40,924 nucleotides of DNA from a virus (lineage: Duplodnaviria; Caudoviricetes), in the IMG/VR virus record IMGVR_UViG_3300032092_000077, positions 1 through 40,924 of that record; one strand, written 5' to 3'. The notes beneath the pieces are model-generated. The model worked only from the letters and a program-made list of their open reading frames with translations. It searched no databases and was not told the origin of the DNA. Positions within the stretch are counted from its first letter, which is position 1. Each line of letters begins with the position of its first letter. Both the position numbers and the translations under genes were made by a program. This document shows positions 5,718 to 32,977 of this stretch, piece by piece.

Positions 5718-8700
5718 TTACGGGGCGGTGAGCTCGGCCCCGAGGCGGGCGCGGGCCTGGGCCGCGGCGGTGGCATCCAACCGGCGCACGTACTCTTTGA
5801 TCTGGGCGCGGGTGTAGCCTTGCTGGCGCAGCGTGGCGATGTTGACCTGACCGAGGATCTCCTGGCGGGCCTGGCCCAGGGCCCGGTTCCACTCCCGCCG
5901 TTGGCGCCAGGTCAAGTCCGCCGGCGCGACACCCGCCACGGGCGCGCGCGGGCCGCGGTAGGTCAGCAGCTCGTTGGCGCTGAGTAGCTGGTGGACGGGA
6001 TCCTGCGTCAGACTGGTAAACGGCAGGGGCACGCCACTGACCGCGGGCACGGGCGCGCTGGTGTGAGTCCCCAGTTGCCAGTAGCGGACTTCGGGCTGGC
6101 CCGTGGTGGGGCTGGGCTCGTCGGGCAACAGGTAGGAGATCCCGGGCAACCGCGCGCCCAGGCCGCGTTGCGGCCGGGGATTGATCACGCTTTCCATCGC
6201 GCCCAGCAACGCCTGGCCCGGCACCAACCGGTTGAGCGTGTTGCTGGCCTCGGCCAGCACGGCATGGGTGCTGCCTTGTTGGGCGGCCAGCTTGACGCTG
6301 GTAAACAGGCTGCCCAGCAACCCGCCCGCCTCGCCGCGGCCGGCCAGCAACGCCTGCGCAAACGGCAGGCTGGCATACCGGGACAACCCGATCACGGCGG
6401 GCCGGTCGCCGCGCAACAAGCTTACCAGGAACAGCGCCGTGGACAGCGGCTCCACCCGCAACGACACGCGCACGCCGTCCGCGCCCACCCAGTCGCCGCT
6501 CTGGTAGTCCACATGGCCGCGGTCCTTGTCCTCATCGGGCGCGTCGCTGGGCGCAAACAGGGCATGGACCAACAGCAACCCGCCGATGCCCGTGGCGGTG
6601 CGGGTCAGGTAAGCGGCGATCTGCTCGGGCGTGGCCCGGCCGTCGCGCACGGCCCGCCAAAGGCGGGGATTGATCCCCACCATCTGCCCCGCCCACCGGG
6701 CCAGCTGGAACGGCCAGCGTCCAAAGGGAGTCACCAGCAAACGGAAAAACGTGTTGCGGGCAATTCGTTCCTCGACCGGGCTCAATGCACGGTTGAACCC
6801 CGCGGCGTTGCCGGCCGCGATGGCCGTCTCGATGGCGTGCGCGGGCGGGTCGGCCACGTATTGCTCGATGTAGTCCTGCGCGGCCGCGCCGCGCAACCCG
6901 TGACGGTCGGCGCTGGTGCGCGCCTCCTGGTAGAGCGCCGCCATGGCGGCCAGCCGTTTGGCGGCCAGGTCCGCCGCGCCCTTGGCGTAGAGCGGCGTGC
7001 CCACCAGCGCGTCGAGGCTCTTGCCGGCCCAGGTGCGGCGGGTGCTGAACGTGCCGCGGTCGCCCGTGGGGAACGCGCCCGCGCTGGGCGCGCCCAGAAT
7101 GTCGGTCTCGCCGCTGACGGTCCGGCCAAACGCTTCCTCCAGCCGCGCATCGAGTGGACGGCGGGCATGGCTGGCGCGGTGGCGCAGCGCGGCGACAAAG
7201 GCCGACGTGGCCGGCAAGCTCAACCGGCCCGTGCGCAGCGCGTGGACCAGGTCGTAGCCCGCGCCCTCGATGCGCTGGGCGGCCAGCTCGGCGGCGTTGG
7301 CGACAATGTCCAGCGAAAAGCTCGTGACCGAAAACAAGTTGAGCCGCCAGGCATCCACCAGGTACCGGCCCAGCTCGCGCGCGCCCTGCTCATCCAACTG
7401 GTGCACCTGGGCCAGCCGCGTGGCGATGGCGTTGTAGATGGGCTCGCGCACATGCGCGGCAATGTCGCCCGCCAACAGGTTGGCCAGCGCGGCCCGCTTA
7501 CCGGGATTGGTCTCCTGCTGGATCTTGGCGGCCCGGTCCCGCACCACGGCGGCCAGGGTCTCGTCGTAGGCGGGCAACCCGAGCTTGTCCTGCAAGGCGG
7601 TGTAGGCCGCCTCGGTGTCGAGCGCGCCCAGTGCGCTGGCCCGGAGCAACCGCTCCCCGGCGCTGCGCACGGCCCGCTTGACCTTGCCCTGCTGGGCCTG
7701 GCCGATCACGCGGGCCAACTCCCGCTGCTTGACGGCGGCCGTCTCCGCCTGCATGGCGGCGGCCACGTCCTGGGCCAGCTGGGCGGCCTGCAATTCGCCC
7801 AGGCCCGCTTGCGCGGCCAGCTTGGCGGCCAACGCCGCGGCGGTGGCGTCCGCGGTGGTGTAATGCTCATAGACCAACTGGCGGAGCTGGGCGCCGCGCT
7901 TGACGATCGCCGCGGCCGCCGCCGCGCGCAACGCGGGGCTGCCGGCCGCCAGGTACTGGGCCAACGGATCCTTGGCTTGTCGGGCCTGGCTGGCGCGCTC
8001 GGCCACGGGCGCCGCCGCCCTGGCATTGGCCTGCTCCAGGTTGCGCAACAGCCCGGCAATCAACGCCTGGTCGGCGCTGGGCAACCGCTGGCCGCGGGCC
8101 TTGGCCACTTGGCGCTGGGCGAACACTTCCCAACCTTCGGGAGTCAGGTACTGGAGCTGGTCCCAGGCGAACAGCTTGCGGGCATTGCTGACGGCGCGGC
8201 CCGTGGTCTCAAAGTAATCGGTGAGCCAAGAAAGCAGCTCGGCATGGTTGCGGCCCACCTGGGCGGCGCCGCGCCGATCGCCGTCGCGGGTCAGCTTGTT
8301 GTACCTTTCTTGGAGCAGGCGCCCGAGTTGGATCGCGGCCTCGGTGCGGACGTCGGGCGCGAGCTGGTTGGCCGTGTTGGTCACTTCCCGGTAGGCCTGC
8401 TCGACGCCGCCAACGCTGTTGATCCAGGCCGACGCCTCGCGGGCCATGGCATCGTCGCCTTTGACGGTGTAGCGCCGCTCGCCCTCGATGCGGGCGCGGC
8501 TGTGCGGGTCTACCTGGTTGTCGGGCTGGTCCAGGATCCGCCCCGCCAGCTTGTGCTCGCGGGTGCGGGAGAAACGAATGTCGGGGCGGTTTGGGTTGAA
8601 GCGTTCTGAGAGCGGAATTACTCGCCCTGCATCATCGCGAGTGATGGCGTCGGCGAGTTTGACATGCGCCGCACTGGTGGCGACGTGTACTTCGTGGCCC

Positions 8701-11700
8701 GGTCGTCCCCACGCATCGGTTTCGAGAATGCCGGTCTTGCCGGTAACCCTGTACACGGCTTGGTAGGTCAGCTCTGGGTCAGACCCGCCGTTGATCAAGC
8801 CCGCGACGAATGATGCATCATCTTGGGAATAGTTGGCCAAGTTGTTGGCGGCTTCCTCGATGACTGAAGGCAGTCCTTGATACGAAATATCGCCATAGTT
8901 CCACAGCGGGCTTGATCCTTCTTCGGCGGTTTCGGCTTCACTGTGAAGCACGCGCAGGATTTGCTTGATTTGCCGACGCGTGATTGTGAGACGCCGCGGG
9001 TCAAGCTGTTTGCCGCCGCGCAGATAAACTCGAAGAAGCCGCTCGCCGTGGCGCTCGGCATAACCTTTGGCCAGCGCTTCGTCATTGGTGAAGTAAAAGC
9101 CTTTGCCCTCGGTGGTGCCCTGGGCGCCCATCTTTCCCCAGTCGAAGACAGTGAATCCACCAGCACCGCCGTGCCACACGGGTCCAATCGTGAATCCTGC
9201 CTTGCGTGCAGCCGCGTCTACCATTTGCTGCGCTGTCGCTGTGTCGCCACGTTCAACAGCCGCCAAATATTGGCGGTCTTCCGCGGCTGTCACAGTGGCC
9301 CGCGATAGCCGCAGATCGCGGCGCTCGGTGTTGTCCCCTGAAAAGTGCTCGCGGGTGCGGGAGAGCGGCAAATCGAGTTGGCTGGGTTGCGGGGGCGGTT
9401 GCGGGGTTTGGTCGCCGCTGCCGCTCTCACGATTTACCAGGCGGAACCGCTCACCGGCAAAGGGGTCTTGCATCAACGCGGCCGCCTCGGCCGCGGACAC
9501 CGCCGCGCGCTGGTACGGGCCGCCGAGTCCGCGAATCTGTTCCTCGCTGAAACCGCGTTGTTGCATGTCCTGCACCGCCTGGGCGCGGGTGAGCGCGACA
9601 CCGCCCCAGTTGATCTTCTCGGCCATGAAGTCGTCGGCCAGATTGCGGCGGCGCGAAAGCATGACGCCCGGCGCGGTCAACGTGGCGTTACCGGCATGGA
9701 ACACACCCGCCTGGGCAGCGTCGCCTGCCTGCGTGCCCAGCGTGGCCAGGGCCTCGGTGGCGGCGGTGCGGACCCGCTCCAGGTTGGCGATGGTGTCGCT
9801 GGCGCGGCGGCGGAGCGTCCAACGGCTGCCGAGGGCCTGCAAACTGCGCTCCAACACGTCCAGCAACGTCTGCAACAGGTCGCGCACGGGCCCGGGAGCG
9901 CGCGCGGCCAGCCGCTGCCAGAAACCGGCATCGGCGGCCAGCTCGCCCACCAGCTCGGGGATAAACTCGTCGCGGGCCTCGGCGGCGCTGGCGGCGGGCA
10001 GGTCCGGCCCAAACTGGTCGTTGAATCGCGCCAGCCAGGCCTGCACGCGGGCGGGGTCGGCTTCCTGGAGGATCACCCGCACCAGCTCATTCCAAACGCG
10101 CGGGTTGGCTTGTTTCAGCCGATGCGTGGCCTCGTGGGTCACAGTCGACAACACGGGGTCGGCAAGTTCCACTGACAACCCGATGACGTTGGTACCCGGC
10201 AACTGCAGCCCGTTAATGCGCGGGCCGGTGCCGGTGCGCTCCAGCCAAACTACGCGCAGCCCGAGGGCTTGGGCGACGGCGTCAACGGTGCGGGCGACGG
10301 GGTGCTCGGTACTGACACGGGCTGGCCGGTAAACACGTTCACCACCAGGGCGTCCGAGGCGCATCTGCAAACGATCAGCGAGTTGGCCGGCGAGGGCTTC
10401 ATCGTGCTGGGCGGTGCCGGGAGCGTAACGCTGCGTGGGGCGGGCGGTTTCATCGCCCACAATCTCGCCCGCCAACGGGTGGGAGTCAAGACCGGAGTCG
10501 GCCTGTTGCGCCCGTGAAAACGGCACTGCCTCTTCGCTCTTTGCGGCGGTTTCTTCCCGCTCCACTTCCGCCTGCCAGTCGCGTTCTTCGGCGCGGCGCT
10601 CGGCGTCGGCCTCCAGTGCGTCCGCCGTGCCGTGATAGGCCGTGGGATAGTAAAAGCGCTGGCCGCGAAGCTCTTCATCGAGCGCGTTGTACAGGTCCGC
10701 GGGCGTGCTGCCCGCGGGCAGGAAACCCGCCTCGACGGCGGCCTCGACGTGGCTATCGGGCGCGTTGGCGGGCCGATTGGCCCGGTCAATCAACCCGCGC
10801 CGCTTGGCCAGCGAGTCCTGTCCCGCTACCAGCTGGGCAAAATCGGCGGCCATCTGCACCGGCCCGCCATCGGGCTTGGCCAGCGCGATGCCGCCCCGGC
10901 CGCGGACAAACTGGGTCAACGTCGTCGCGCCCGCCACGGGAGTGGCCACGGCGGCCGGCCGCGGGGGCGCGGCCACGGGCGCGTTGGGATCCCCGTTGCT
11001 GACCAGCAACGTGGCCAACTCGGCGGGGTCAACGGCCACGGGGGCGACGGCGGGGCGGGCCTCGGCCAGGGCGGCGGCGTCCAACTCGCGGGGCGCGGCG
11101 CCGTCGCGATCGGCCACGATGCTGGCCGTGGTCCGTCGGGCGTGCTCGTCGTTGAGGGCCTGGATCGTGGTCTCATTGGCCACGGCGAACTGGCGGCGGG
11201 TCTGGCCGCTGGCGGGGTCGCGGCGTAGTTTGTGCCAGGTGCCCTCGGCGTCGCGTTCGTACAGGTCCTGCTGCCAGGTCAGCAACGGCACGGGGCCCGC
11301 CAGGCGGGCGCGCAACTCGGCCAACCGAGCGGCGGCGGCGGGGTCGGCCACGGGAGCCGCGCCCAGGTCCTGGGCGGCCGTACCGGCTGCGTCGGACGTG
11401 GGAGTGAGTGTCGCAACTACAACGTCAGCGACGGGCGGCACTGTGCCGCCGCGGTCGGCGCCTGTTCCTGTGACGCGGGCATCTTCCGTGGTGGCGAAAA
11501 CTGCGGGGGCATTGGCCCCCGTGCTGCTCGCGGCGGCGCGGCTGTGCGCGGCGTTGATCGCAGCCAAAAATTCGGCATCGGTCCAGTCGTTCTCGGCGCG
11601 GGCCTGCAACAGGTCGGCCACGGCGGACGGGTCGGCGGCATCGAGCGCCGCCAACTGCGCAAAGGCCGCGGGCAACGGGTCCACCGCGCTGGCGGCGGCG

Positions 11701-12767
11701 GGGCGGGCGGCGGGCGCGGCGGGGCGGGCCGCGGCCGGCACGGGCGGGGGCGTGGCGGCGCGCTGGGTGCGGGCATAGCTGACGGGCAAGCCCAGCGCGG
11801 CAAACACGGTCGAGGCCGCTGCCGCGGGGCCCATCATTTGCTGGACGCGGTCCCACAAGGGCGGCGTGGGCACGTCGGCGGCCCGGTCCGCGCCCCACTG
11901 GCCCGCCTCGGTCACCAGCTCCTCGATGAACTCGGTCACGCCGATCCCCGCGCTGCGGGCGCTGGCCTGCAACGCGCGGCCCAGCCACGTTTTGACGGGA
12001 CGGGTCAGGGCGGCCATGGGTCGGCCCAAACCCGCCAGCTTTAATTGCAGCACATCGCTGACGGCTTCCACGCCGCCCTCGATCAGGCCTTGGGACAAGG
12101 CGTATTGCTGGCGGGCGTCCCCCGTCAAGGTGGCGGGGGCCGTCTCGCGGCTGCGGTCGTAGGTGCTGGCACCAAACAGGGCGCCCGCGACGGCGGCCGG
12201 GTTGCCCGTGGCCGCGCCCAGGCCCATGGCCGCCAGCGACGGCGTGGCCGTGCGGATGCCTTGTTGCAAGAAAGAAACCACGCCCGTGGCGGGGGCCTGG
12301 GGCAACGCGCGGGCCTCGGCGGCGCGCGCCTTGGCTTGCCAGTTGTCCTCCCACCACGATTGCCCGGGCAAACGGACCTGGGCCGCGGCCGGCCAGGCGG
12401 GCGGGCGCAGCGCGTCGTAATACGACGCCCCGGGCACGGTCCACGTCAAACCCTGGCGGGCCATGGACGGCGCACCGGCCAGGCCGCGCGCCACCAGCGC
12501 CATGGTGTCCAGGCCCGCGCCCTGCAACGTGCTGGGCCAATCGGCCGCCACGGGCGCCGCGGGGGCGGGTCCCGACGTCTGGACGGGCGCCGCGCTGTGG
12601 GCGGCGGCGGTCAGGGCGGGCAGGGGGGCCGCGGCCGCGGGCCACGCGGGGCGTTGCCGGGCGGCGGCGAAAATCTCATCGAGGTCGGCGGTGGTGGGGG
12701 GCGCCGCGCCGTCCCAGTCGAGTTGGAAGCGTTGGCCTGTGTGTTGGTCGGTGACGGCGTAACGCAT
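5718..12767 (-). CDS. Large polyvalent / internal virion (ejection) protein, 2349 aa, with zincin-like HExxH and ADP-ribosyltransferase-like domains
   Basis: Last gene of the late operon; VTHEATH motif; VWHGG...GKGFYFT...VYLR ART-like motifs; IPLSERFN...DIRFSR linker typical of phage polyvalent proteins. Confidence 0.75.
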   Translation of the reverse strand: MRYAVTDQHTGQRFQLDWDGAAPPTTADLDEIFAAARQRPAWPAAAAPLPALTAAAHSAAPVQTSGPAPAAPVAADWPSTLQGAGLDTMALVARGLAGAPSMARQGLTWTVPGASYYDALRPPAWPAAAQVRLPGQSWWEDNWQAKARAAEARALPQAPATGVVSFLQQGIRTATPSLAAMGLGAATGNPAAVAGALFGASTYDRSRETAPATLTGDARQQYALSQGLIEGGVEAVSDVLQLKLAGLGRPMAALTRPVKTWLGRALQASARSAGIGVTEFIEELVTEAGQWGADRAADVPTPPLWDRVQQMMGPAAAASTVFAALGLPVSYARTQRAATPPPVPAAARPAAPAARPAAASAVDPLPAAFAQLAALDAADPSAVADLLQARAENDWTDAEFLAAINAAHSRAAASSTGANAPAVFATTEDARVTGTGADRGGTVPPVADVVVATLTPTSDAAGTAAQDLGAAPVADPAAAARLAELRARLAGPVPLLTWQQDLYERDAEGTWHKLRRDPASGQTRRQFAVANETTIQALNDEHARRTTASIVADRDGAAPRELDAAALAEARPAVAPVAVDPAELATLLVSNGDPNAPVAAPPRPAAVATPVAGATTLTQFVRGRGGIALAKPDGGPVQMAADFAQLVAGQDSLAKRRGLIDRANRPANAPDSHVEAAVEAGFLPAGSTPADLYNALDEELRGQRFYYPTAYHGTADALEADAERRAEERDWQAEVEREETAAKSEEAVPFSRAQQADSGLDSHPLAGEIVGDETARPTQRYAPGTAQHDEALAGQLADRLQMRLGRPGGERVYRPARVSTEHPVARTVDAVAQALGLRVVWLERTGTGPRINGLQLPGTNVIGLSVELADPVLSTVTHEATHRLKQANPRVWNELVRVILQEADPARVQAWLARFNDQFGPDLPAASAAEARDEFIPELVGELAADAGFWQRLAARAPGPVRDLLQTLLDVLERSLQALGSRWTLRRRASDTIANLERVRTAATEALATLGTQAGDAAQAGVFHAGNATLTAPGVMLSRRRNLADDFMAEKINWGGVALTRAQAVQDMQQRGFSEEQIRGLGGPYQRAAVSAAEAAALMQDPFAGERFRLVNRESGSGDQTPQPPPQPSQLDLPLSRTREHFSGDNTERRDLRLSRATVTAAEDRQYLAAVERGDTATAQQMVDAAARKAGFTIGPVWHGGAGGFTVFDWGKMGAQGTTEGKGFYFTNDEALAKGYAERHGERLLRVYLRGGKQLDPRRLTITRRQIKQILRVLHSEAETAEEGSSPLWNYGDISYQGLPSVIEEAANNLANYSQDDASFVAGLINGGSDPELTYQAVYRVTGKTGILETDAWGRPGHEVHVATSAAHVKLADAITRDDAGRVIPLSERFNPNRPDIRFSRTREHKLAGRILDQPDNQVDPHSRARIEGERRYTVKGDDAMAREASAWINSVGGVEQAYREVTNTANQLAPDVRTEAAIQLGRLLQERYNKLTRDGDRRGAAQVGRNHAELLSWLTDYFETTGRAVSNARKLFAWDQLQYLTPEGWEVFAQRQVAKARGQRLPSADQALIAGLLRNLEQANARAAAPVAERASQARQAKDPLAQYLAAGSPALRAAAAAAIVKRGAQLRQLVYEHYTTADATAAALAAKLAAQAGLGELQAAQLAQDVAAAMQAETAAVKQRELARVIGQAQQGKVKRAVRSAGERLLRASALGALDTEAAYTALQDKLGLPAYDETLAAVVRDRAAKIQQETNPGKRAALANLLAGDIAAHVREPIYNAIATRLAQVHQLDEQGARELGRYLVDAWRLNLFSVTSFSLDIVANAAELAAQRIEGAGYDLVHALRTGRLSLPATSAFVAALRHRASHARRPLDARLEEAFGRTVSGETDILGAPSAGAFPTGDRGTFSTRRTWAGKSLDALVGTPLYAKGAADLAAKRLAAMAALYQEARTSADRHGLRGAAAQDYIEQYVADPPAHAIETAIAAGNAAGFNRALSPVEERIARNTFFRLLVTPFGRWPFQLARWAGQMVGINPRLWRAVRDGRATPEQIAAYLTRTATGIGGLLLVHALFAPSDAPDEDKDRGHVDYQSGDWVGADGVRVSLRVEPLSTALFLVSLLRGDRPAVIGLSRYASLPFAQALLAGRGEAGGLLGSLFTSVKLAAQQGSTHAVLAEASNTLNRLVPGQALLGAMESVINPRPQRGLGARLPGISYLLPDEPSPTTGQPEVRYWQLGTHTSAPVPAVSGVPLPFTSLTQDPVHQLLSANELLTYRGPRAPVAGVAPADLTWRQRREWNRALGQARQEILGQVNIATLRQQGYTRAQIKEYVRRLDATAAAQARARLGAELTAP
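8553..9364. repeat. 20-bp direct repeat pair GTGCTCGCGGGTGCGGGAGA (8553-8572 and 9345-9364) flanking the ART-like domain
   Basis: Exact match, 792 bp (264 codons) apart; both encode SRTREH on the minus strand. Confidence 0.9.
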
Positions 12768-14112: not shown

Positions 14113-15171
14113 TTAGGCGGCGGCGGGCAACTGGCGGGTGTAGGCGGCCATCTGGGCCAGCTGCAACAGTTGGTTGAGCTCGGCATTGCCGGTTTGATAG
14201 CTCGTGTCGGCCAAGATATTGGCCAGCACGCGGGCGGCATCGCCCTGGAGGCTGCCCTCCAGGCCCGCGAATCCCTGCGTGGCCGCGGCATAGGCCTGGC
14301 GGGCGGACTGGTTGCGATCGGTGGCGGCCAGCATCAGGTCGCGCCGCTCGCCGTTGCCCTGTCTTGCCATCTGCATCCGCAACAGGGCCACGGTGCGCGG
14401 GTCCAGCGCCTTGCCGGCCTGGGCGTACTGTTGCTGGAGCACGCTGATCGCGGCGTTGAATTGGGCGGCCTGCTGGTCCTGTTGGCGGCCCAGTAGGTAA
14501 TTGATCACCTCGGGCGAGTAGGGGTCGCTGCGCAGCCGATTGACGGCCCCCGCGAACTGCTGCATGGCGGGCCCGTTGACCTGGGCCTGCATCCGGCCCG
14601 CGGCCTGCACGGCCTGGGCGCGGTCGGCCAGGGCCCGCTGGCGGGCATCGGCCACGTTGGCGGCATGGCGGGCCAACAAGTTGTCCATCCCATTGGGGCC
14701 GCGCGCGGGCTGATTGCCGGCCGCGCCCAGGCGGCCCGCAAACTCGTCGGGATTGCCCTGGCGGAAACCCGAAGCGCGCGGGTTGGCCAGCGAACCATCG
14801 GCGTTGTAGATCCCCGATAACGCGAGGTTGGCGGGCGGATTACCCGCCACGCTGCCGGGCGTGGCCGCCAGCGCGGGCCAGGGCGACGGGGTCGGGCTTG
14901 CCGGCAAGGGCGCGGGGCGCCACGGGGTGAGCGGCGGCGGGCTCTGGGTCCACAAGTTGCCCAGCGCCCGCACCGAGTCGGCCAGCGAACGGTCGAGGTT
15001 GTCGGGCGCGAACTGGGGGTTGTTGTGGTAGTACTGCTGGGCCAGGGGCGCGTACACGTCCGCCACGGGGTCCCATGCGCCGCCCTGGTCGGCGTAGAAC
15101 GGGATCAGGGCGTCGGGGTCCTGCACGCCCTGCGGAAAGTAGCCTGCTTCTTCGCTGTAGTAACCGTTAGT
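14113..15171 (-). CDS. Putative internal virion protein, proposed non-canonical start at ACT 15171
   Basis: Frame is open upstream of GTG 15126 to a TAG at 15184-15186; AGGAGG lies 5 nt before in-frame ACT AAC; Ala/Gln-rich helical body. Confidence 0.6.
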   Translation of the reverse strand, partial: TNGYYSEEAGYFPQGVQDPDALIPFYADQGGAWDPVADVYAPLAQQYYHNNPQFAPDNLDRSLADSVRALGNLWTQSPPPLTPWRPAPLPASPTPSPWPALAATPGSVAGNPPANLALSGIYNADGSLANPRASGFRQGNPDEFAGRLGAAGNQPARGPNGMDNLLARHAANVADARQRALADRAQAVQAAGRMQAQVNGPAMQQFAGAVNRLRSDPYSPEVINYLLGRQQDQQAAQFNAAISVLQQQYAQAGKALDPRTVALLRMQMARQGNGERRDLMLAATDRNQSARQAYAAATQGFAGLEGSLQGDAARVLANILADTSYQTGNAELNQLLQLAQMAAYTRQLPAAA

Positions 15172-15219
15172 CTGAGCCTCCTTCTACGCCATCGCGGCGC
15201 GGGTTCCAAGTCTTTTGTT

Positions 15220-17241
15220 TCATCGGGGCGCCCCCGTGGGTTGGGCGATCAGGGTCACGCCGTTCAGTTGCCAGGGCTGGGCGGGGCCATCGGTGCCAAA
15301 CTCTCCCTGCCAGTTCTCACCGATGCCGTACTGCGCGGCCACGCACAGGTCCGTGGCGTTGACGGGGAGCAACGTCGCGTTGAGCGTCAACTGCCGCCCC
15401 CGCGCCCAGGTGTAGGGCCGCAACCAAAGGTTCGCGCCCTGTCCCGTGGCGGCGATGCTGGCCTCGCACCAGCGTTTTTGGCCGACTGTCTTGACGCTCA
15501 ACCGCGGCGTCTGCCAGTAGCTGCTGTACCCGCCCAGCATGATCTTGTCGCCCACGCTGACATTGGGCGACAACGCGCCCCCGTAATACGCCGTGTCCAC
15601 CGTCACCGTCTGGCCCGCGGCGGCGCTGATCAACCGGCGCTGGCCTGCGCCCGTGCCACTGAGCACGGTCAGGACTGCGCCCGCGGCGCTACTGCTGCCG
15701 GCTACGTCGTCAAACCACGCATCATCACACGTAATATCGTTCCCGTTCACGCCGCTGACGGTGCCGATGCAACTCATACCCTGGACGCCATCCAGGCTGC
15801 CGGTATCGCAGACCCAGACCCCGCCGTGATAGGTGCCGATCAACAAACGAGTCTCGTCATCGGAAAACTTCTCGGACCGGCTGCTCGCCGCGGGCAACCG
15901 GCAAATCCACCACTGGCACGGCCGCTCCCGCGTTGGCTGGCTGAAATCGGCAATCAACATGAGGTCGGTCACTGCCGTCTCACCGATCCGCGTCAACCAC
16001 AGCACGTACCACTTCCGGGGTTCGTACCATTGGGCATGGGCCATGTGGTCCCGGCCATGGTTCACGCCATCCCGCAGCAACGGCTCAATGTCCTGGCTGA
16101 TCAACTGGGGACGGTTCGTGGCCGTCTGGAACTCGCCCCCGTGCATCAGGTACACTCCCCCCGCGCCGCCGTACCACAAGGCGTTGCCGTTGCCGTCCTG
16201 CACCATCGTAGCGTGGCCCGCACAGCCAACTTCCGTGGACACGCAAACCGGTGTCCAGCCCGTCGAATCCCGCACCAGCAAGTAGGTACTGCGATGCTTG
16301 CCGACAACGACGTTGCCCCGGCACACGCCGAGCGCGGTAATCTCGTCGCCATCATCGCCGCCCACGTCCACCGAGTTGAACACGCTCAAGGGATCGTACC
16401 CCTCGATGTTGTCGGGCAACGCATTGGTGAAGTACACCGTGTTGGGACTGCCCATGATCCGATAGGTGGCATCAGTATCGGTGCTGCCCTGGTAATCGCC
16501 GTTCAAGGTCGCTGTCTGGGTCGCTTCGTCAAAGCTCTCGATCACGTAGCCGAGCACGGCGCCTGTCACCAGGAACGTCTTGCCCTCGACGGCACGGGTC
16601 AAATCGGCATTGGTGAACACCACGGTGTCATCGCCATTGGTCACGCTGGCCGTACCTTCGGTCCACGGCTTGGTCCCGCCCAGCGCAATCTGGGTTGGCA
16701 ACGCCCGCGCCACGGCGCACGCGGGTAAAAACTCGTTCTGGGTGGCCACGGTCAGCACGGTCAGGCTGCCGTCGCTGACGGTGATCTCGTAACTGGTGGT
16801 GACGTTGTCGGCCACGGTCGCCTGGGCTGTCACCCGATACAATTCCGTCCCGCCCGCCAAGGTCATGTAAACGACGCGGGCATTCACGGCCGCGTTGTCC
16901 GACAACGGCAGATTGCCAATGGTGATCTTGCCGTTGGCCGTTACCGGCACGGCCGCGGACTGGATCGGGCCGCTCTCGGCCAAAATCACCCCGCCCGGCG
17001 TGGTGACGGCAAACGTGACGGCGACGATATGCTCGCCCGCGGTCATGCTGCCGCCCGAGCCTGCCACGGTTGTCATCGCGGCGAGTTGCGCGGCGGTCGG
17101 GGGGCGCACACCCCACAAACGGAGCGCACTGCCCAGGCCAGTATTGCACCGGTTCGCATTGATCCCGTCGCAAATGATCTCGCGCCCACCCAAGCGGGCC
17201 GAACTTGGCAGCCAGTCAATCGGTATGTAGGTATCACTCAT
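15220..17241 (-). CDS. Tail nozzle / head-stabilisation-like protein
   Basis: Beta-rich; GDEITALG, VSTEVGC, GGVY and ISQDIEP motifs resemble podoviral nozzle proteins; ATGA overlap at 17241. Confidence 0.6.
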   Translation of the reverse strand: MSDTYIPIDWLPSSARLGGREIICDGINANRCNTGLGSALRLWGVRPPTAAQLAAMTTVAGSGGSMTAGEHIVAVTFAVTTPGGVILAESGPIQSAAVPVTANGKITIGNLPLSDNAAVNARVVYMTLAGGTELYRVTAQATVADNVTTSYEITVSDGSLTVLTVATQNEFLPACAVARALPTQIALGGTKPWTEGTASVTNGDDTVVFTNADLTRAVEGKTFLVTGAVLGYVIESFDEATQTATLNGDYQGSTDTDATYRIMGSPNTVYFTNALPDNIEGYDPLSVFNSVDVGGDDGDEITALGVCRGNVVVGKHRSTYLLVRDSTGWTPVCVSTEVGCAGHATMVQDGNGNALWYGGAGGVYLMHGGEFQTATNRPQLISQDIEPLLRDGVNHGRDHMAHAQWYEPRKWYVLWLTRIGETAVTDLMLIADFSQPTRERPCQWWICRLPAASSRSEKFSDDETRLLIGTYHGGVWVCDTGSLDGVQGMSCIGTVSGVNGNDITCDDAWFDDVAGSSSAAGAVLTVLSGTGAGQRRLISAAAGQTVTVDTAYYGGALSPNVSVGDKIMLGGYSSYWQTPRLSVKTVGQKRWCEASIAATGQGANLWLRPYTWARGRQLTLNATLLPVNATDLCVAAQYGIGENWQGEFGTDGPAQPWQLNGVTLIAQPTGAPR

Positions 17242-24093: not shown

Positions 24094-24468
24094 TTAGTTC
24101 CCCCAAAGCTCGCGGACCAAACCCGTGCGGGGCGCGCCCGTGGTGCCGAGGCTGTAGGTGCCGCTGTCCATGATCGGGAATTTCTGTTCCCAGGTCGTGG
24201 CGGGCGCGATCACGGCCACGGGGCGGTCGTTGCTGCTGCCGGCGTAGAGCACCAGCGCATCGGCGGCATTGGTGTTTATCACCGCAAGCAACGCGCGCTC
24301 CTGGCCGACGATGTTGGTGGTGCACACGGTCGGCTGGTTGGTGTTGGCCGCGGCGGTCACGCTGCGGCTGGTCTGGGTGCGGACTTGAATCGAGGGCAGG
24401 TTGCCGGCCAGCGCGGCGGCGGCGCCGAGCACACTGACGGCCACGATGAGGCGGACATGACGTTTCAT
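24094..24468 (-). CDS. Small beta protein with signal peptide
   Basis: AAGGAG RBS; MKRHVRLIVAVSVLGAAAALA; C-terminus (VRELWGN) resembles that of 12836-13240 (VEVWGIPNR). Confidence 0.7.
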   Translation of the reverse strand: MKRHVRLIVAVSVLGAAAALAGNLPSIQVRTQTSRSVTAAANTNQPTVCTTNIVGQERALLAVINTNAADALVLYAGSSNDRPVAVIAPATTWEQKFPIMDSGTYSLGTTGAPRTGLVRELWGN

Positions 24469-24940: not shown

Positions 24941-26443
24941 TCAGTACACGGTCATCGGCACGCCGCTGACTTCGACGTTGCGGTTGGGCATCGAGCAACC
25001 CAGCTCAAAGCTGGCGTACAGCTCGATGATGTAGAGCGGGAAGTTCGGCAGCTTTTGCAGCATGCCGCCCTGCGGGAGAAACACGGGCTGGAACTCCAGC
25101 GAGCCGTAGATATCCCAGTCCTCGGCCAGGCGCATCCCGAAGTACCGGCCGCACGGGCAATCGGAGTCGGCCAACATCGGCACGCCATCGGCCCAGAGGC
25201 CGACGAAACCGCCGCCGAGGTTCACGTATCCGCCCTGCACGCCCGGCGATGTCGGCACCTGGAACTGGCGGGTGGCCAGCAAGCCAGCGCCGTACTTGTC
25301 GTAGCCCTCGGGCGAGGTCAACCAGATAAACCCTTCCGGCTGGTTCGGGTCCATGATGTTGCCTTCGTCGCCGCCTTCCTTGAACGCCGCGCTCTTGGCC
25401 CGGCGCAAGGTGGCTTCCAGCGCTTCGCCCTGGGCGGGCGTCACGCGCATCGGCCGCCACAAGGCATTGGCCGCGGCCGTGCGGTCCAAGCCCCAGACGG
25501 TGCCGCCGATATCGGTGGCGGCCGCATGAGCGCCCAGCCAGGAGCTGATCCCGGTCACGGCCTGGTTGTAGCTGGAGCTGACGCTGTCCAGGTGGCCGAT
25601 CACCAACCAGTCGTTGTCAGCGGTGTTACCGTGCCCCGCGGCGCCATCGAGCGTGCCCGCGTCGGTCACGGTGATGGTGCCCGCGGTCTTGTCAATCGCG
25701 GTCACTAACAGCCCGTTCTGGCGGACGGCGCCCGTGTCGGACCGGATGGCGCAAACCGGCAACCCGACGTGGAAATACTTGGTCAGGTCACCGGCCAGCG
25801 TATTGATCAGCCCGTCGTTGTCGAGGGTGATCACGCCCGCGGCGGGCGAGCCGGCCACTCGGCCCAGCACGCCGCTCTTGGGCAGGTACAAGGCCTGGTT
25901 AATGATCTTGCCGGCGTCGCGCTCCTTGGCTTTGAGCTCCAACACCATCGCGTCCTGGAATACGACTTCGTTCGACCGGGCCCGATTGATCGTGTTCAAG
26001 TCGAACTGCAGCACGCTGAAGATGTTGCTCGGGTTCGCCTTCGGGGTGATGCCCGTGGTGCTGCCCGGCCGCGCCAGCGCGCCGCTGCCGTTATTCCAGC
26101 CAATGCCCATGATGCCGCCCGTCAGCATGCGCAGCTCAAAGTGCGTGCCGCCGACCAGCCCGATGGGCGTCTTTTGGCCGAGGCGGTTCACGAGGAACTT
26201 GCGCCGCTGCAGGGCGTTTTTCATGCCGCGCAAATACTGCGGCAACATTTGCCAGGTGGCCGAGCCCGTGGCGGGCGCGGTGCTGGCGTCGGTCAACGCG
26301 CCACCGGGGTAGGTCAGCGAGTTGCCCGTCACCGTCCAGGCGAGTTTCCAGCCGCTGGCTTGCAGCCATTGCGCGGCCACGGCCAGCAAGCCCGCGCCGA
26401 GCACGGTCAGCAACGCCGTGAGTTTGTAGAACAACCGTTTCAT
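24941..26443 (-). CDS. Major capsid protein with hydrophobic N-terminal leader
   Basis: ACAGGAG RBS; follows portal and scaffold; ARSNEVVFQDAMVLEL...INQALY, GLDRT and ADSDCP patterns of HK97-fold capsids. Confidence 0.75.
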   Translation of the reverse strand: MKRLFYKLTALLTVLGAGLLAVAAQWLQASGWKLAWTVTGNSLTYPGGALTDASTAPATGSATWQMLPQYLRGMKNALQRRKFLVNRLGQKTPIGLVGGTHFELRMLTGGIMGIGWNNGSGALARPGSTTGITPKANPSNIFSVLQFDLNTINRARSNEVVFQDAMVLELKAKERDAGKIINQALYLPKSGVLGRVAGSPAAGVITLDNDGLINTLAGDLTKYFHVGLPVCAIRSDTGAVRQNGLLVTAIDKTAGTITVTDAGTLDGAAGHGNTADNDWLVIGHLDSVSSSYNQAVTGISSWLGAHAAATDIGGTVWGLDRTAAANALWRPMRVTPAQGEALEATLRRAKSAAFKEGGDEGNIMDPNQPEGFIWLTSPEGYDKYGAGLLATRQFQVPTSPGVQGGYVNLGGGFVGLWADGVPMLADSDCPCGRYFGMRLAEDWDIYGSLEFQPVFLPQGGMLQKLPNFPLYIIELYASFELGCSMPNRNVEVSGVPMTVY

Positions 26444-26500
26444 TGTGTTTTCTCCTGTCTGCATTGTCGTGGTGCTTGGGTGTTGTCGTTGGTTGTCGGG

Positions 26501-27442
26501 TCAGGCGGCGGCGGGTTGCGGGGCGGCTTGCACCTGGGCCCGCAACGTGGTGAGCATGCGATGCGCGTCCTCAACCGATTGGGGCTCGCGTTGCATCAGC
26601 AACGGGCCCGTGGCCGGTGCCCCCGCCGTGGGGGCGCCGCCCGGCAACGCCGCGAAAGCACCGGCGGGCTGGCCCGCGGGCGTCACGCTGCGCTTGACGT
26701 AGTTGCCCAGCCGCGCATCCCAGCTTTGCTGGACGGCGCGGGCGATCTCGACGGGATCCACCAGGTGCGGGTTGCCGTAGGTCTGAACGGCCTCGGCGTA
26801 CCGGCGATTGAAGTCCTGGCGGGTGATGGCCGAAAAATCGGCATCCATCAAGATCGGGGCCACGGCGGCCTGCTGGCCATTGCCTTTGCCGAGATACTCG
26901 TACATCTGCTCGGCCTGCTGCCGCTGCATGGCTTCCTGCTGCAACCGATGCGTCTGGTTGATCGGGGCCAGCATTTGCTGGAGCGGCGTCAACGCCTGCT
27001 CCAACTGCTGGCTGAGCGCGGTGCTCAGTTCCTGGCGCAACGCCATCAATTCGGGGTCCTGCAACTGGGTTGCGGGGGGTGCCGTCATCGAGGGCGCGGG
27101 CAACGCGGGCATCATTCCAGAAGGGAGTGACGCGGGCGCGTGGCCCAGCGGCGGGTGGACCGGCGACGGCGCACCATGGGCCGTGCTGCTGGTCAACTGC
27201 TGCAACGTCTGCATGATCTGGACGTTGAGCTGTTCCTGCCGCTGCATCCGACGATTGAACTCGCCCAGCAAATTCTCCACGGGCGGCGTCGCGGGCGCGT
27301 TGGGACGCGCGGGCGCGGCGGCGGCCGAGAGGGCCCCGTTGGGCGGCGGGGTGGCAGGCGGAGATCCTGCGGTTGCTCCGGGATGGGGTGGGGTGGTTGT
27401 CGCTGGCGGGGCGACGGGTGCGCCGGGGTTGGTCGGGTTAGT
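26501..27442 (-). CDS. Capsid scaffolding-like protein, proposed non-canonical start at ACT 27442
   Basis: Gln/Pro-rich coiled coil between portal and capsid. Frame is open 54 codons upstream of GTG 27280; AGGAGG lies 5 nt before in-frame ACT AAC; in-frame TGA 9 codons further up. Confidence 0.65.
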   Translation of the reverse strand, partial: TNPTNPGAPVAPPATTTPPHPGATAGSPPATPPPNGALSAAAAPARPNAPATPPVENLLGEFNRRMQRQEQLNVQIMQTLQQLTSSTAHGAPSPVHPPLGHAPASLPSGMMPALPAPSMTAPPATQLQDPELMALRQELSTALSQQLEQALTPLQQMLAPINQTHRLQQEAMQRQQAEQMYEYLGKGNGQQAAVAPILMDADFSAITRQDFNRRYAEAVQTYGNPHLVDPVEIARAVQQSWDARLGNYVKRSVTPAGQPAGAFAALPGGAPTAGAPATGPLLMQREPQSVEDAHRMLTTLRAQVQAAPQPAAA

Positions 27443-27545
27443 CCTGACCTCCTGTTTGGTTTCGTGTCACCGCGGCCGTGCGGGGTGCTCGCGTATTATG
27501 CCCCGCGCGAGATTCGGGGAGCATGGCCGCTGCGTTCACGGAAAT

Positions 27546-27621
27546 TGGATGCGGGAGTCGGACTCGAACCGACGTTTCCTCGTGACTAACGAGGTATCCT
27601 GGTCCACTAGAAGATCCCGCC
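27546..27621 (-). tRNA. Atypical 76-nt tRNA, anticodon AGU, 1:72 mismatch, encoded CCA
   Basis: GGCGGGA-TC-TTCTAGTGGACCAGGAT-A-CCTCG-TTAGTCA-CGAGG-AAAC-GTCGG-TTCGAGT-CCGAC-TCCCGCA-T-CCA folds as a cloverleaf. Confidence 0.88.
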
Positions 27622-27643
27622 AGAAATGGTTGTGATTGTTGAC

Positions 27644-29680
27644 TCACGCCGCCCCCTTTGGGTTGGGCTGGCCGGGCATGGCTTGAGCGGCCATCATGCC
27701 GCCGGGGCGCGGGCCCTGGCTGGCCGGCAACGGCACGGGGCCGCCAACCGGCAGCGCCGCCTGCACCATCATCATCCGGTGCATGTCGGCATGGGCCATA
27801 ATCAGGCGCTGGGCCATCGGACCGGCTTCGGGGTGCTCCTTTAACCAGAGCACATGCTCGTCAATGTGGCACACGTGGTCATCCCAGGGCTGCGGCGCCG
27901 CCCAGCGGCCCTGTTCAAACAGCGCGTTCTCGGTCTGGGCCCGGTCAATGTCGGGCTGGTCGGCAAACTCGTGGCGGAAACCGCCGAGGTCGAGTTGCTG
28001 GTGCAACCACTTGACGTTGGGCCGGCCGGTGCCGTCCACGATCATGCCGTTGCGCCAGAGCTCGATCAACTGGCCGTTCCACGCCGCGGCATCGCGCGGC
28101 ATCGCGCTGCCTTTAACGACGTCCACGTCCGCATACAGGTTCTGCGCGGCCATCAGTGACAGCGTGTAGCCCTTGGTCTCGCCCACAATCCGCAACAGTT
28201 TCTCGGGCGGATAATACTGGCGGGCGAGCGCCAGCGTGATCCGCGCGTCGTCGGCGTCGGCCTGCTCGCGTTCGCTGGTCAGGGTGGCAAACTTCTGCTG
28301 GCCGCTGGCCAACAAACTGTTGAACTGCTGGCCGCTGCGGACCTGGGCGTCATTCATCCCGCGCATGATGTCGTAGAGGCCAAACTCGTCATCAATGTCA
28401 CGCAGCGTCTCGGCAATCTCCTGCGACGCGCCCGGCAACGCCTGCGCGCCGAGGATGGTCGGGGCCGCGCCGTTGGCGCCGAGCTGGCGCTCGTACTCAA
28501 TGAAGCTGCCGTGAATGTTGGTCACCTGGTCGGGGTCGGCCAGCGTGCCGCGCTCCACCAGGATGCGGTTGCGGCCCATGGCCAGGCGGTTCATCGTCTG
28601 GTCGGTCTTAATCCGGTTCAACCGGTTCTGCGACGGCCGCGCCGCCTCGGGGAAACCGATCCCGTAGAACTCGCCCGGCACCTGGATGCCACGGAGCCAC
28701 ACACAGCCCAGCTGCAACGTCTTGGGCGCCTCGGGCGGGAACAAGCCGACAAACGGGTTGACGTCGTACTCCACCACGGTGCGGTTGACGACCACCACCC
28801 GCCGCCCCTGGGGCCAACGCTCGCACGGCAGCTCGTAATACTCAAACACCCGCCCCGTGCCTTGCTGGCCGCCCTGCGGCCCCTTGGCGCCCGCGGGCGA
28901 AAACAGGAAGTCCAGACGTTCGGACATGCCATCGTACAGGTCCCGGTACTCATCCGCGCCGAGCTGGTCGGCAAACTTCGGATACAACTCGCGCAGCTCC
29001 TCCAGGGGCCGCCGCGCATCGAACAGCACCGCCCGCGCGTCGCGCGCGCTTTTGAGTCGCGTGGGGAACACGTGGGCGTGGTAAATCGAGTACACTTCCT
29101 TGCGGATCTCGGGGAACTGCACCGTGGCCGGGCCCTGCCCGGGCAGCTGCACTTGCATCGGCTGGCCGCCTTTGGGGTCGAGATAGGTCCGCACGCACAC
29201 CGTGCCGTCCATCACCCGCAACTCGTCGCTCTCGGCCTTGAGCCGTTCGGCGTTGTTGATCCGGCCAATGTAGTCCAGCACCGAGCGGGCGACCATGGCA
29301 AATTGCTTGTCGCGGGTCTGCCGCGTCGTCGGGATCGGCTCCACCTGGCTTTGGCCGCGGGCCAGCAACCCCAGTAGTAACCGCACGTTGGGCTGGATCC
29401 GGTTGGCCACTTCGCGCAACTCGCCCTCGGGATTCTCGACGTCGAGCAGCCCAAACGCGCCGCCGTCGAAGCGGGTCCACTGGTACCCGAGGTAGTAGGC
29501 CCGGTTGAGGTAGCTGTTGGCGTAGAGCCGCAACTTGGCGTGGTTGGCCGCGCTGTGGCGCTGGTGGATCTCGTCCACCAGGGCCGAGGCCTGGATCGTG
29601 GACGGCAACCGCACGCTCTCGCGCAGTGGTTCGCTGACGGCGCTTTGCTCGCGCACGGTGTTGGCGTCCTGGATCAGCAT
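27644..29680 (-). CDS. Portal protein
   Basis: 678 aa downstream of terminase; NRIQPNV..LLG.L, FYGIG..E..RPSQ..LN and DDH..HI..H patterns of P22-like portals. Confidence 0.8.
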   Translation of the reverse strand: MLIQDANTVREQSAVSEPLRESVRLPSTIQASALVDEIHQRHSAANHAKLRLYANSYLNRAYYLGYQWTRFDGGAFGLLDVENPEGELREVANRIQPNVRLLLGLLARGQSQVEPIPTTRQTRDKQFAMVARSVLDYIGRINNAERLKAESDELRVMDGTVCVRTYLDPKGGQPMQVQLPGQGPATVQFPEIRKEVYSIYHAHVFPTRLKSARDARAVLFDARRPLEELRELYPKFADQLGADEYRDLYDGMSERLDFLFSPAGAKGPQGGQQGTGRVFEYYELPCERWPQGRRVVVVNRTVVEYDVNPFVGLFPPEAPKTLQLGCVWLRGIQVPGEFYGIGFPEAARPSQNRLNRIKTDQTMNRLAMGRNRILVERGTLADPDQVTNIHGSFIEYERQLGANGAAPTILGAQALPGASQEIAETLRDIDDEFGLYDIMRGMNDAQVRSGQQFNSLLASGQQKFATLTSEREQADADDARITLALARQYYPPEKLLRIVGETKGYTLSLMAAQNLYADVDVVKGSAMPRDAAAWNGQLIELWRNGMIVDGTGRPNVKWLHQQLDLGGFRHEFADQPDIDRAQTENALFEQGRWAAPQPWDDHVCHIDEHVLWLKEHPEAGPMAQRLIMAHADMHRMMMVQAALPVGGPVPLPASQGPRPGGMMAAQAMPGQPNPKGAA

Positions 29681-32078: not shown

Positions 32079-32663
32079 TTACTCTACCTCCGCAGCTTGC
32101 AATGCAGGCACTTGTGCTGGGCTGTCACCTTGCGAAGGGGTGACACGGGCCCGCAAATGCGCAATCGCGTCGCCTACCACGCCGCTGATCTGGACCGTGT
32201 CACCGGCCACGGCCACGGCGATCTGGGCGCCGCTGGGCTTCAATTCGCCCGTGTACTCGCCCGCCAGCTTCAACAAGGCGATCTCCTCGCCCTCCAGGCT
32301 GCGCCGACTGGCCGCCTCGGCCACGCGCTCGGTGGCGTAGCCCATGGCACGGCGGAAATCCTCACGGCACAAGTCTTTGCGCTCCAGCAAATAAGCCGCG
32401 TGAAGCTTGGTGAAGTCGTCCGTGTTCACCACGCGCGACAAGGTCGAGCGCGAGATCTTCAACCGCTCCGCCAGTTCGGTCATGTTTGCGCGTGGAAAGT
32501 CCACAAGTGCCTCAGAAACAGCTACTTGCACCCGTGAAGCCTTCGGAAACCGTCGCAAAACCCTGACCCAAACGAGGCTATGAGGCTCGACAGCGGGGCC
32601 TTGGCGACGGCTTGCCGCCTGATCTCCGCCTCGGCGTTGCATGGGACGCTTCTCTGGCATCAC
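32079..32663 (-). CDS. Terminase small subunit-like HTH protein
   Basis: MTELAERLKISRSTLSR HTH; directly upstream of terL; start uncertain. Confidence 0.65.
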   Translation of the reverse strand: MMPEKRPMQRRGGDQAASRRQGPAVEPHSLVWVRVLRRFPKASRVQVAVSEALVDFPRANMTELAERLKISRSTLSRVVNTDDFTKLHAAYLLERKDLCREDFRRAMGYATERVAEAASRRSLEGEEIALLKLAGEYTGELKPSGAQIAVAVAGDTVQISGVVGDAIAHLRARVTPSQGDSPAQVPALQAAEVE

Positions 32664-32816: not shown

Positions 32817-32977
32817 GTCAGACTGGTCGGAATCCGACCGCTCTGGTGGGTCAGACTGGTCGGAATCCGACCGCTCTGGTGGGTCAGACTGGTCGGAATC
32901 CGACCGCTCTGGTGGGTCAGACTGGTCGGAATCCGACCGCTCTGGTGGGTCAGACTGGTCGGAATCCGACCGCTCTG
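32817..32977. repeat. Tandem array, about 4.9 x 33 bp, each unit containing the palindrome GGTCGGA-A-TCCGACC
   Basis: Unit GTCAGACTGGTCGGAATCCGACCGCTCTGGTGG starts at 32817, 32850, 32883, 32916, 32949; no spacers. Confidence 0.95.

Follow-up and report, generated by a model that had tools for sequence, protein, structure and literature searches.

The window (the whole stretch of viral DNA analysed, 40,924 nt) was found to contain the complete genome of a temperate tailed phage with a 127-nt terminal repeat, an integrase, a terminase, a P22-like portal protein and a major capsid protein. A single tRNA gene was present, situated between the portal gene and the gene preceding the capsid gene (Table 1). 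The pre-capsid gene was annotated as a putative scaffold gene from its position intermediate between portal and major capsid and from a weak Atlas lead (0.87). The internal virion gene probably encoded an ejection or pilot protein, with a weak Atlas lead to P22 gp7 (0.89; family on 22% of members). The start of the major capsid gene was most likely its ATG backed by a Shine-Dalgarno sequence (SD) rather than position 26464. The virion region also contained a 2349-aa protein (5718-12767) with a match to ART-PolyVal (ADP-ribosyltransferase) at residues 1197-1262.

Table 1. Coordinates of the tRNA gene, the two ACT sites and the neighbouring genes in the window.
Feature	Coordinates	Strand	Remarks
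Portal protein, P22-like	27644..29680	(-)	upstream neighbour of the tRNA gene
69-codon frame	27438..27647	(-)	from GTG overlapping the portal stop, across the tRNA gene; ends at TAA in GAC-TAA-C
tRNA, initiator-like	27546..27621	(-)	anticodon AGU, C37, G1·A72, G2:C71, C3:G70, U73
Shine-Dalgarno AGGAGG, putative scaffold gene	27448..27453	(-)	
G(-1)+ACT, predicted private start, scaffold gene	27440..27443	(-)	complement of tRNA 34-37
Putative scaffold protein	26501..27442	(-)	313 aa from ACT
Major capsid protein	24941..26443	(-)	downstream neighbour; SD-backed ATG at 26443
18-codon mini-ORF	15167..15223	(-)	from ATGA overlap; ends at TAA in GAC-TAA-C
Shine-Dalgarno AGGAGG, internal virion gene	15177..15182	(-)	
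G(-1)+ACT, predicted private start, internal virion gene	15169..15172	(-)	
Internal virion protein	14113..15171	(-)	352 aa from ACT

Nucleotides of the window tRNA

ARAGORN reported one tRNA-Thr(AGT) of 76 nt in the window (score 107), and the gene scored 37 bits against the Rfam tRNA family (RF00005; gathering score 29), with a cloverleaf and CCA. The acceptor arm was found to contain GGCGGGA/TCCCGCA with a G1/A72 mismatch, followed by the presence of a Glu-like D-arm with U11:A24, the anticodon loop TT-AGT-CA and a variable loop of 4 nt. The anticodon-stem pairs 29-31 were TCG/CGA (C30:G40), without the three G:C pairs (3GC) and without G30. The mismatch, acceptor, loop, D-arm and missing 3GC pairs had been pointed out in a first-pass annotation of this DNA and were all seen.

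The 1:72 mismatch, G2:C71 and C3:G70 were shared with initiator tRNA-fMet, whereas the CAU anticodon, 3GC/G30 and A11:U24 were absent; the paired 1:72 and purine 37 of ordinary Thr, Glu or Asp elongators were absent as well. Because the anticodon, the 3GC pairs and the 11:24 pair differ, the tRNA lies outside tRNA-fMet proper, and it would work like an engineered orthogonal initiator. The first-pass view that a pyrimidine at position 37 is unusual in bacteria needed correction for phage Glu/Asp tRNAs: many phage tRNA-Glu and tRNA-Asp (L100-L217), collected by a search that selected for a pyrimidine at 37, were found to contain U37, with loops CT-TTC-TA and CT-GTC-TA.

Two genes with ACT at the predicted start position

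At their predicted starts, the putative scaffold gene contained AGGAGG-TCAGG-ACTAAC (ACT at 27442) and the internal virion gene AGGAGG-CTCAG-ACTAAC (ACT at 15171). As described at first pass, no ATG, GTG or TTG occupied the ACT position and an in-frame stop lay just upstream, at 8 and 4 codons, respectively; the first in-frame ATG/GTG/TTG downstream was found at +54 and +15 codons. The spacing after GGAG was 6 nt at the ACT sites, compared with 7-8 nt in the canonical late genes. A strict window-wide scan for a strong SD before a coding-like frame without a usable canonical start gave three orphan frames, the two high-scoring ones being the genes at 27442 and 15171; outside the window, known cases (L003 gene 2, L226, L241, L348, L350 and L351) were missed through its thresholds, and the scan is therefore no census. 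The codon-usage score favoured the ACT frame in the gene at 15171 (3.2 versus -7.3 and -22.8) and was -9.2 in the ACT frame versus -6.5 in another frame in the scaffold extension.

Both ACT sites were present in a 99.9%-identical assembly (L001), and the scaffold site was present together with the tRNA loop in another (L098). A strain contig (run X12) contained 17 differences over 27437-28145 and none in 27437-27629. The tRNA and both AGGAGG-N5-ACT sites are real by ARAGORN, Rfam and these two assemblies, and the ACT sites are no assembly errors, since L001 contains both and L098 and the strain contig agree for the scaffold-tRNA region.

The GACTAAC reported at both sites was found there, and further copies without an SD occurred at 21820 and 21254. 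An ACT-AAC at 24098 was rejected as a third site, lying 1 nt from an SD-like run with A at -1 and a GTG 4 codons on. The two short frames that end at the sites (Table 1) are possible coupling ORFs. A short hairpin was noted at 27431-27449, with the scaffold-start ACTAA in the loop and the end of the SD covered; it was not evident at the other sites.

A relative with exchanged codon and anticodon

Among 16 loci from a major-capsid alignment scan, the sole true relative was L003 (44% identity in the major capsid and 46% in the portal protein). Capsid, portal and alignment scans for further relatives of the tailed lineage gave only L003 and near-identical copies, and the GenBank phages gave one distant portal and no match for the L262 target described below. 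L094 and L046 were not accepted as family members.

The sister tRNA of L003 lay in the same place and contained the same acceptor pairs 2-7 as the window tRNA, a C1·U72 mismatch and the loop CC-ACU-CC. Both orthologous genes of L003 were found to start with G-AGT-AAC, 7 nt past the SD core, followed by the next canonical codon at +52 in each; a TTG was present 54 codons upstream of gene 2, inside the preceding gene. A reciprocal swap was thus seen at both orthologous genes, AGU being matched with ACT in the window and ACU with AGT in L003. The co-variation was restricted to tRNA positions 34-37, the L003 loop starting with CC while AAC stays. The pairing of GACTAAC with tRNA nucleotides 31-37 put forward at first pass was narrowed to these 4 nt, which co-vary, and the 7-nt form was rejected because the match at 31-33 is lost in L003.

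A motif conserved in the scaffold protein, ENLLGEFNRR in the window and QNLVGELNRR in L003, began at the window GTG 27280, which was aligned with a non-start codon of L003, and no canonical codon was found in L003 until past the motif. The position of the L003 motif upstream of the first canonical codon was in favour of the alternative-initiator reading of the first-pass annotation.

A G-AGT-AAC before terL (window 32079-32091; L003:834) mimics the L003 motif and was rejected, being the terS stop; in both genomes terS ended with GAG-TAA-C immediately ahead of the ATG of terL, which was read as a conserved C-terminus. A tandem repeat with a 33-nt period (self-matches) was present at 32817-32977 of the window, and L003 also contained a tandem repeat upstream of terS.

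Similar tRNAs in other phages and prophages

A GTDB pattern scan gave one match, an inovirus-like prophage in a Faecousia MAG with a rolling-circle Rep and a small membrane coat-like ORF, in which an AGU/C37 tRNA lay directly before SD-N11-ACT. A second prophage of the same genome contained a UUU/C37 tRNA with G-AAA. A broader pattern, run on 10 of the 64 parts of the viral set, gave 120 viral loci, out of a total estimated at 800 matches. It also matched 7 of 401 Oscillospiraceae genomes.

Among 107 unique viral sequences, 100 contained clean stems, 89 with CAU and 11 with other anticodons. The non-CAU tRNAs included that of the window, three with SD-anchored targets and one with a target without an SD (L310). 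The SD-anchored pairs were CUC with GAG (L241), GUU with G-AAC in an unrelated tailed phage (L262) and UAC with G-GTA at a short Gly-rich ORF (L332). The L262 target gene was situated behind the tail genes and three genes ahead of one for 2193 aa, which is also the position of gene 15171. For two further clean non-CAU tRNAs no target was found in the available sequence, which was a 10.7-kb fragment for L236 and had a replaced 3′ side for L271.

In the Oscillospiraceae genomes, G266 and G382 were near-identical and counted once (CUC tRNA with GAG), and G295 and G098 were ordinary CAU initiators. G364 and G235 contained CUG/C37 tRNAs, and SD-N8-CAG with G at -1 was found at the start of the coat genes, which lay at distances of 2.5 and 4 kb; these non-adjacent starts had been predicted from the tRNA and were found as predicted. 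A second sample of 401 genomes gave only two more matches, host-type tRNA-Gln with paired 1:72.

In L253, L261 and L310 the cognate codon was codon 5 of a small basic ORF preceding a PAPS-reductase-like gene (label by eye), the -1 base matched base 37 and no early canonical start was present; these cases contained no SD and were left out of the counts. In L253, L261, L403 (L310) and L402 (L332), the initiator-like tRNA was noted close to an ASCH-like gene or immediately preceding a small ORF, basic or Gly-rich, that lay ahead of a PAPS-reductase-like gene; the cognate codon was present close to the 5′ end of the small ORF, with a -1 base that matched. The terminase large subunit of L403 also seems to be without a canonical start and has G-GTT.

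Rejected as members were L230 and L295 (paired U1:A72 and G73; the candidate genes of L230 have GTG at normal spacing), L355/L356 (host-type tRNA-Gln), L243/L269 and L239 (poor stems, no target), and L121 and L212 (no target found). L230, L295, L243 and L269, taken as ordinary or ill-formed, make up the rest of the 11 non-CAU viral tRNAs. The L212 tRNA (290-362) was ochre-suppressor-like, with UUA, C37 and a Gln-like acceptor, and that of L121 (9991-10062) was a GUU tRNA with A1·C72 and U37.

Inovirus coat genes

A coat alignment matched 22 of 401 genomes with 31 matches, from which six already known and three weak matches in long ORFs were left out; 21 loci were examined, and the one match without a locus, read separately, contained a GTG start. 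The aligned N-terminus was canonical in 18 of the 21, with SD and ATG in 17 and SD and TTG in one. No canonical start was found in the remaining three, which contained ACG (G332), G-CAG (G149) and T-CAG (G090).

In G332 a CGU/U37 tRNA was present 55 nt upstream of the coat gene. For the wider regions of the other two, CUG/C37 was expected in G149 and either CUG/A37 or AGU/C37 in G090, and CUG/C37 and CUG/A37, respectively, were found. Each of the three thus contained a C1·A72 tRNA with the matching anticodon, and no such tRNA was found in 13 regions of 10-20 kb around canonical-start coats. The first-pass proposal that relatives without the tRNA should carry an ordinary start was borne out in the inovirus branch, where tRNA-less coat homologues had ATG, TTG or GTG. 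A second coat copy of G090 was found to start with ATG despite the tRNA.

In the coat leaders of L219, L226, G266, G364, G149 and G090, an ATG, GTG or TTG, either in frame or out of frame, was often noted touching the SD at its 3′ end; it is too close for normal use and may be a decoy or a fallback start that is leaky.

Co-variation and conserved nucleotides across the family

In-frame codons 5-12 nt past the SD core were tested, and the cognate codon was found in frame 6-11 nt behind the core in all 13 loci with an identified SD-bearing target, the codons being ACT, AGT, AAC, AAA, GAG, CAG, ACG and GTA. Shuffling of the tRNAs gave a mean of 3.2 matches and a maximum of 11, and none of 1,000,000 shuffles reached 13. 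Since the 13 are only those loci with a named target and nine of them are related inovirus coats, the fairer figure is that for one locus per distinct anticodon (eight), which is 1 of 40,320 permutations. Of the 15 sites, 13 showed complementarity between base 37 and base -1 (11 C:G, one U:A and one A:U); the complementarity failed in both CUC/A37 cases (L241 and G266).

A 1:72 mismatch of four different kinds was present in 12 of the 13 family tRNAs, positions 1 and 72 not being fixed in the search patterns, and in 4 of 53 phage tRNAs with a Glu/Asp body, two of them family members. G2:C71 and C3:G70 were within the search patterns except for L003, L226, G149, G090 and G332, and G090 contained U3·G70. 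G30 was conserved in all but the window tRNA; the 3GC pairs were intact in one of the 13, and U11:A24 occupied the place of the initiator purine-11 pair in 10 of 13.

At 7 of 15 sites, the stretch from the upstream in-frame stop to the cognate codon contained no canonical codon. At another 7 of 15 a canonical codon was present in frame 1-7 codons upstream of the cognate codon: a TTG at 5 nt in L226, an ATG 5′ of the SD in G235 and L332, and a GTG, ATG or TTG touching the SD in G266, G364, G149 and G090.

Proposed role of the tRNAs

From the sequence evidence, the phage tRNAs are very probably (about 85%) natural orthogonal initiators that gate structural genes. A private start signal is likely because the anticodon of the tRNA and the codon at the start position change in step across phages. 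This co-variation with the post-SD codon among relatives was the check proposed at first pass for the alternative-initiator reading, and it came out in favour of it. Host ribosomes would then likely read the private start only with the phage tRNA present.

It is also probable that the tRNAs form a widespread natural class, in which tailed phages, Firmicutes inoviruses and probably Bacteroidetes-type phages use their own start codons (ACU, AGU, AAC, AAA, GAG, CAG, ACG, GUA and GUU) for key structural genes, with a formylatable tRNA, a four-base anticodon contact, a non-methionine start and virion production conditional on one small RNA. In-frame GAG, CAG and ACG need no special elongator, and a tRNA that tracks them at start spacing is therefore best read as an initiator.

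In the proposed mechanism, the tRNA would be cut from the late transcript and charged by a host synthetase. G35/U36 are threonine identity elements, and threonine is a guess for the AGU tRNA. The 1:72 mismatch with G2:C71 and C3:G70 would lead to formylation by the host Fmt and delivery by IF2 to the 30S P site, and the strong SD and a fourth pair (C37 with G-1) would offset the missing 3GC pairs; the short upstream frames that terminate there may provide translational coupling in addition. The tRNA would act in trans to license a few structural proteins (the scaffold, the ejection protein and the inovirus major coat) and to control their dose, would keep leaky prophage transcripts silent and would uncouple the structural proteins from the host fMet-tRNA pool.

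According to the accessible text of PMC5389676, the Fmt determinants are the 1:72 mismatch with 2:71 and 3:70, G30 is the key anticodon-stem base, and a mid-CG tRNAfMet mutant cannot sustain E. coli, yet enters 70S. The absence of G30 from the window tRNA, alone among the 13, is a counterpoint to the initiator reading. Base 37 of tRNAfMet is described as pairing with mRNA -1 in initiation, as a quadruplet (PMC10018350, as far as accessible), and engineered anticodon-mutant initiators as starting at the cognate codon with another amino acid (bioRxiv 10.64898/2025.12.21.695813, accessible part). The phage family fits the Fmt-determinant, 37:-1 pairing and anticodon-mutant findings.

A natural +1 frameshift (quadruplet) suppressor, reading GACU with 34-37 so that -1-frame ribosomes enter the gene and do not stop at UAA, is an improbable alternative. 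SD-assisted +1 frameshifting is known from prfB, and a shift at GAC-UAA had been the second model of the first-pass annotation. All four window and L003 sites contained GAN followed by TAA-C with an upstream canonical codon in that frame, two of the four -1 frames began at a stop/start overlap, and bases 35-37 were Asp/Glu anticodons on a Glu-like body in four tRNAs. A -1-frame start was present at 8 of 15 sites but was missing at the other 7, the CUC tRNAs (L241 and G266) had no 4-nt match, and no stop followed the codon in the inoviruses or L262, so that the shift is disfavoured family-wide but possible in the window/L003 lineage. Even there, the ATGA-coupled mini-ORF of L003 gene 2 ended at the SD and not at GAG-TAA (a 1-nt error in the C run of this mini-ORF would place it in the GAG-TAA frame and favour the shift), and the would-be leaders, with 69 versus more than 180 codons, were unrelated and ran through the tRNA gene. 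The anticodon loops of the family were of 7 nt, and the 4-nt match at 13 of 15 sites is expected under initiation as well. An elongator has no need of the 1:72 mismatch seen in 12 of 13.

That host fMet-tRNA starts at a canonical or near-cognate codon situated close by or downstream, with the phage tRNA as a booster or an ordinary elongator, is more improbable still. In-frame canonical codons near the SD at 7 of 15 sites, the choice of GTG 15126 and an internal ATG by gene callers and the GCGGGA acceptor of ordinary host tRNA-Gln would suit it, but those tRNA-Gln have paired 1:72, the downstream GTGs are without an SD, the scaffold GTG is not conserved in L003, and the 13 of 13 anticodon matches at start-like spacing and the 37:-1 co-variation are left unexplained. 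The slightest probability was given to a T-box-like or loop-loop switch, in which the RNA pairs with the mRNA outside the P site and opens or marks the site but gives no amino acid. In its favour, the SD end is covered by a short hairpin with the scaffold ACTAA in its loop, and several tRNAs are without clear synthetase identity; against it, neither 15171 nor L003 showed an evident hairpin by eye, 7 sites would still be left without a start codon, and the matched codon was always in frame at start-codon spacing.

Relation to known systems

Bacterial translation starts with fMet-tRNA at AUG or a near-cognate codon, and to our knowledge tRNAs with another anticodon serve as initiators only in engineered systems. 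No natural phage initiator with a changed anticodon was found in the open-access literature. Near-cognate starts read by host fMet-tRNA, such as the AUU of infC, share a non-AUG start behind an SD and are likely regulatory, whereas ACU, AGU, AAC, AAA, GAG, CAG and GUA differ from AUG at 2-3 positions, only ACG is near-cognate, and the phage codons track a phage tRNA. Phage suppressor tRNAs recode stop codons and gate late genes, likewise a phage tRNA licensing late-gene translation, whereas a private initiator would act at the start and not at internal stops, with one codon per gene. The prfB frameshift and quadruplet suppressors share with the window and L003 the SD, short spacer, codon and stop followed by C; the phage family differs in its 7-nt loops, its spacing of 6-11 nt and many sites without a stop or an upstream frame.

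Engineered orthogonal initiators (i-tRNA-AAC for GUU starts; bioRxiv 10.64898/2025.12.21.695813, accessible part) share an initiator-type acceptor and a non-CAU anticodon with the phage tRNAs, and start at the cognate codon with the amino acid set by the anticodon, as is proposed here. The phage tRNAs are natural, have Glu-, Gln- or fMet-like bodies, mostly without 3GC and A11:U24, and cover at least eight codons, base 37 co-varying with the -1 base. With bacterial initiator tRNA-fMet, as given in the accessible text of PMC5389676, the family shares the 1:72 mismatch, G2:C71, C3:G70 and, in 12 of 13 members, G30, whereas it is without CAU, has 3GC in 1 of 13 and C30 in the window, and serves one or two genes. 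The 37:-1 quadruplet pairing of tRNAfMet (PMC10018350, accessible part) has its phage counterpart in the complementarity at 13 of 15 sites; that system tunes AUG starts modestly and A37C is toxic there, whereas C37 is commonest in the phage family and the codon is non-AUG.

If the reading of the tRNAs as private initiators is true, start-codon recoding would be a new layer of genetic-code variation, phage late genes and prophage silence would be under a switch of a new kind, and evolved orthogonal initiator/codon pairs would be ready for synthetic biology. These structural genes would be missed by gene callers or given wrong starts, and the labels Thr, Ser, Glu, Gln, Lys, Asn or Val that tRNA scanners give to the tRNAs would be wrong.

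The 89 clean CAU initiator-like phage tRNAs (L227-L346) were found to contain complete 3GC pairs in 12 and G30 in 88, followed by the presence of A (64), U (13), G (10) or C (2) at position 37, in a sample that is biased because the pattern selected for C at 37 or 38. A possible role of these tRNAs is private initiation at AUG codons in certain -1 contexts.
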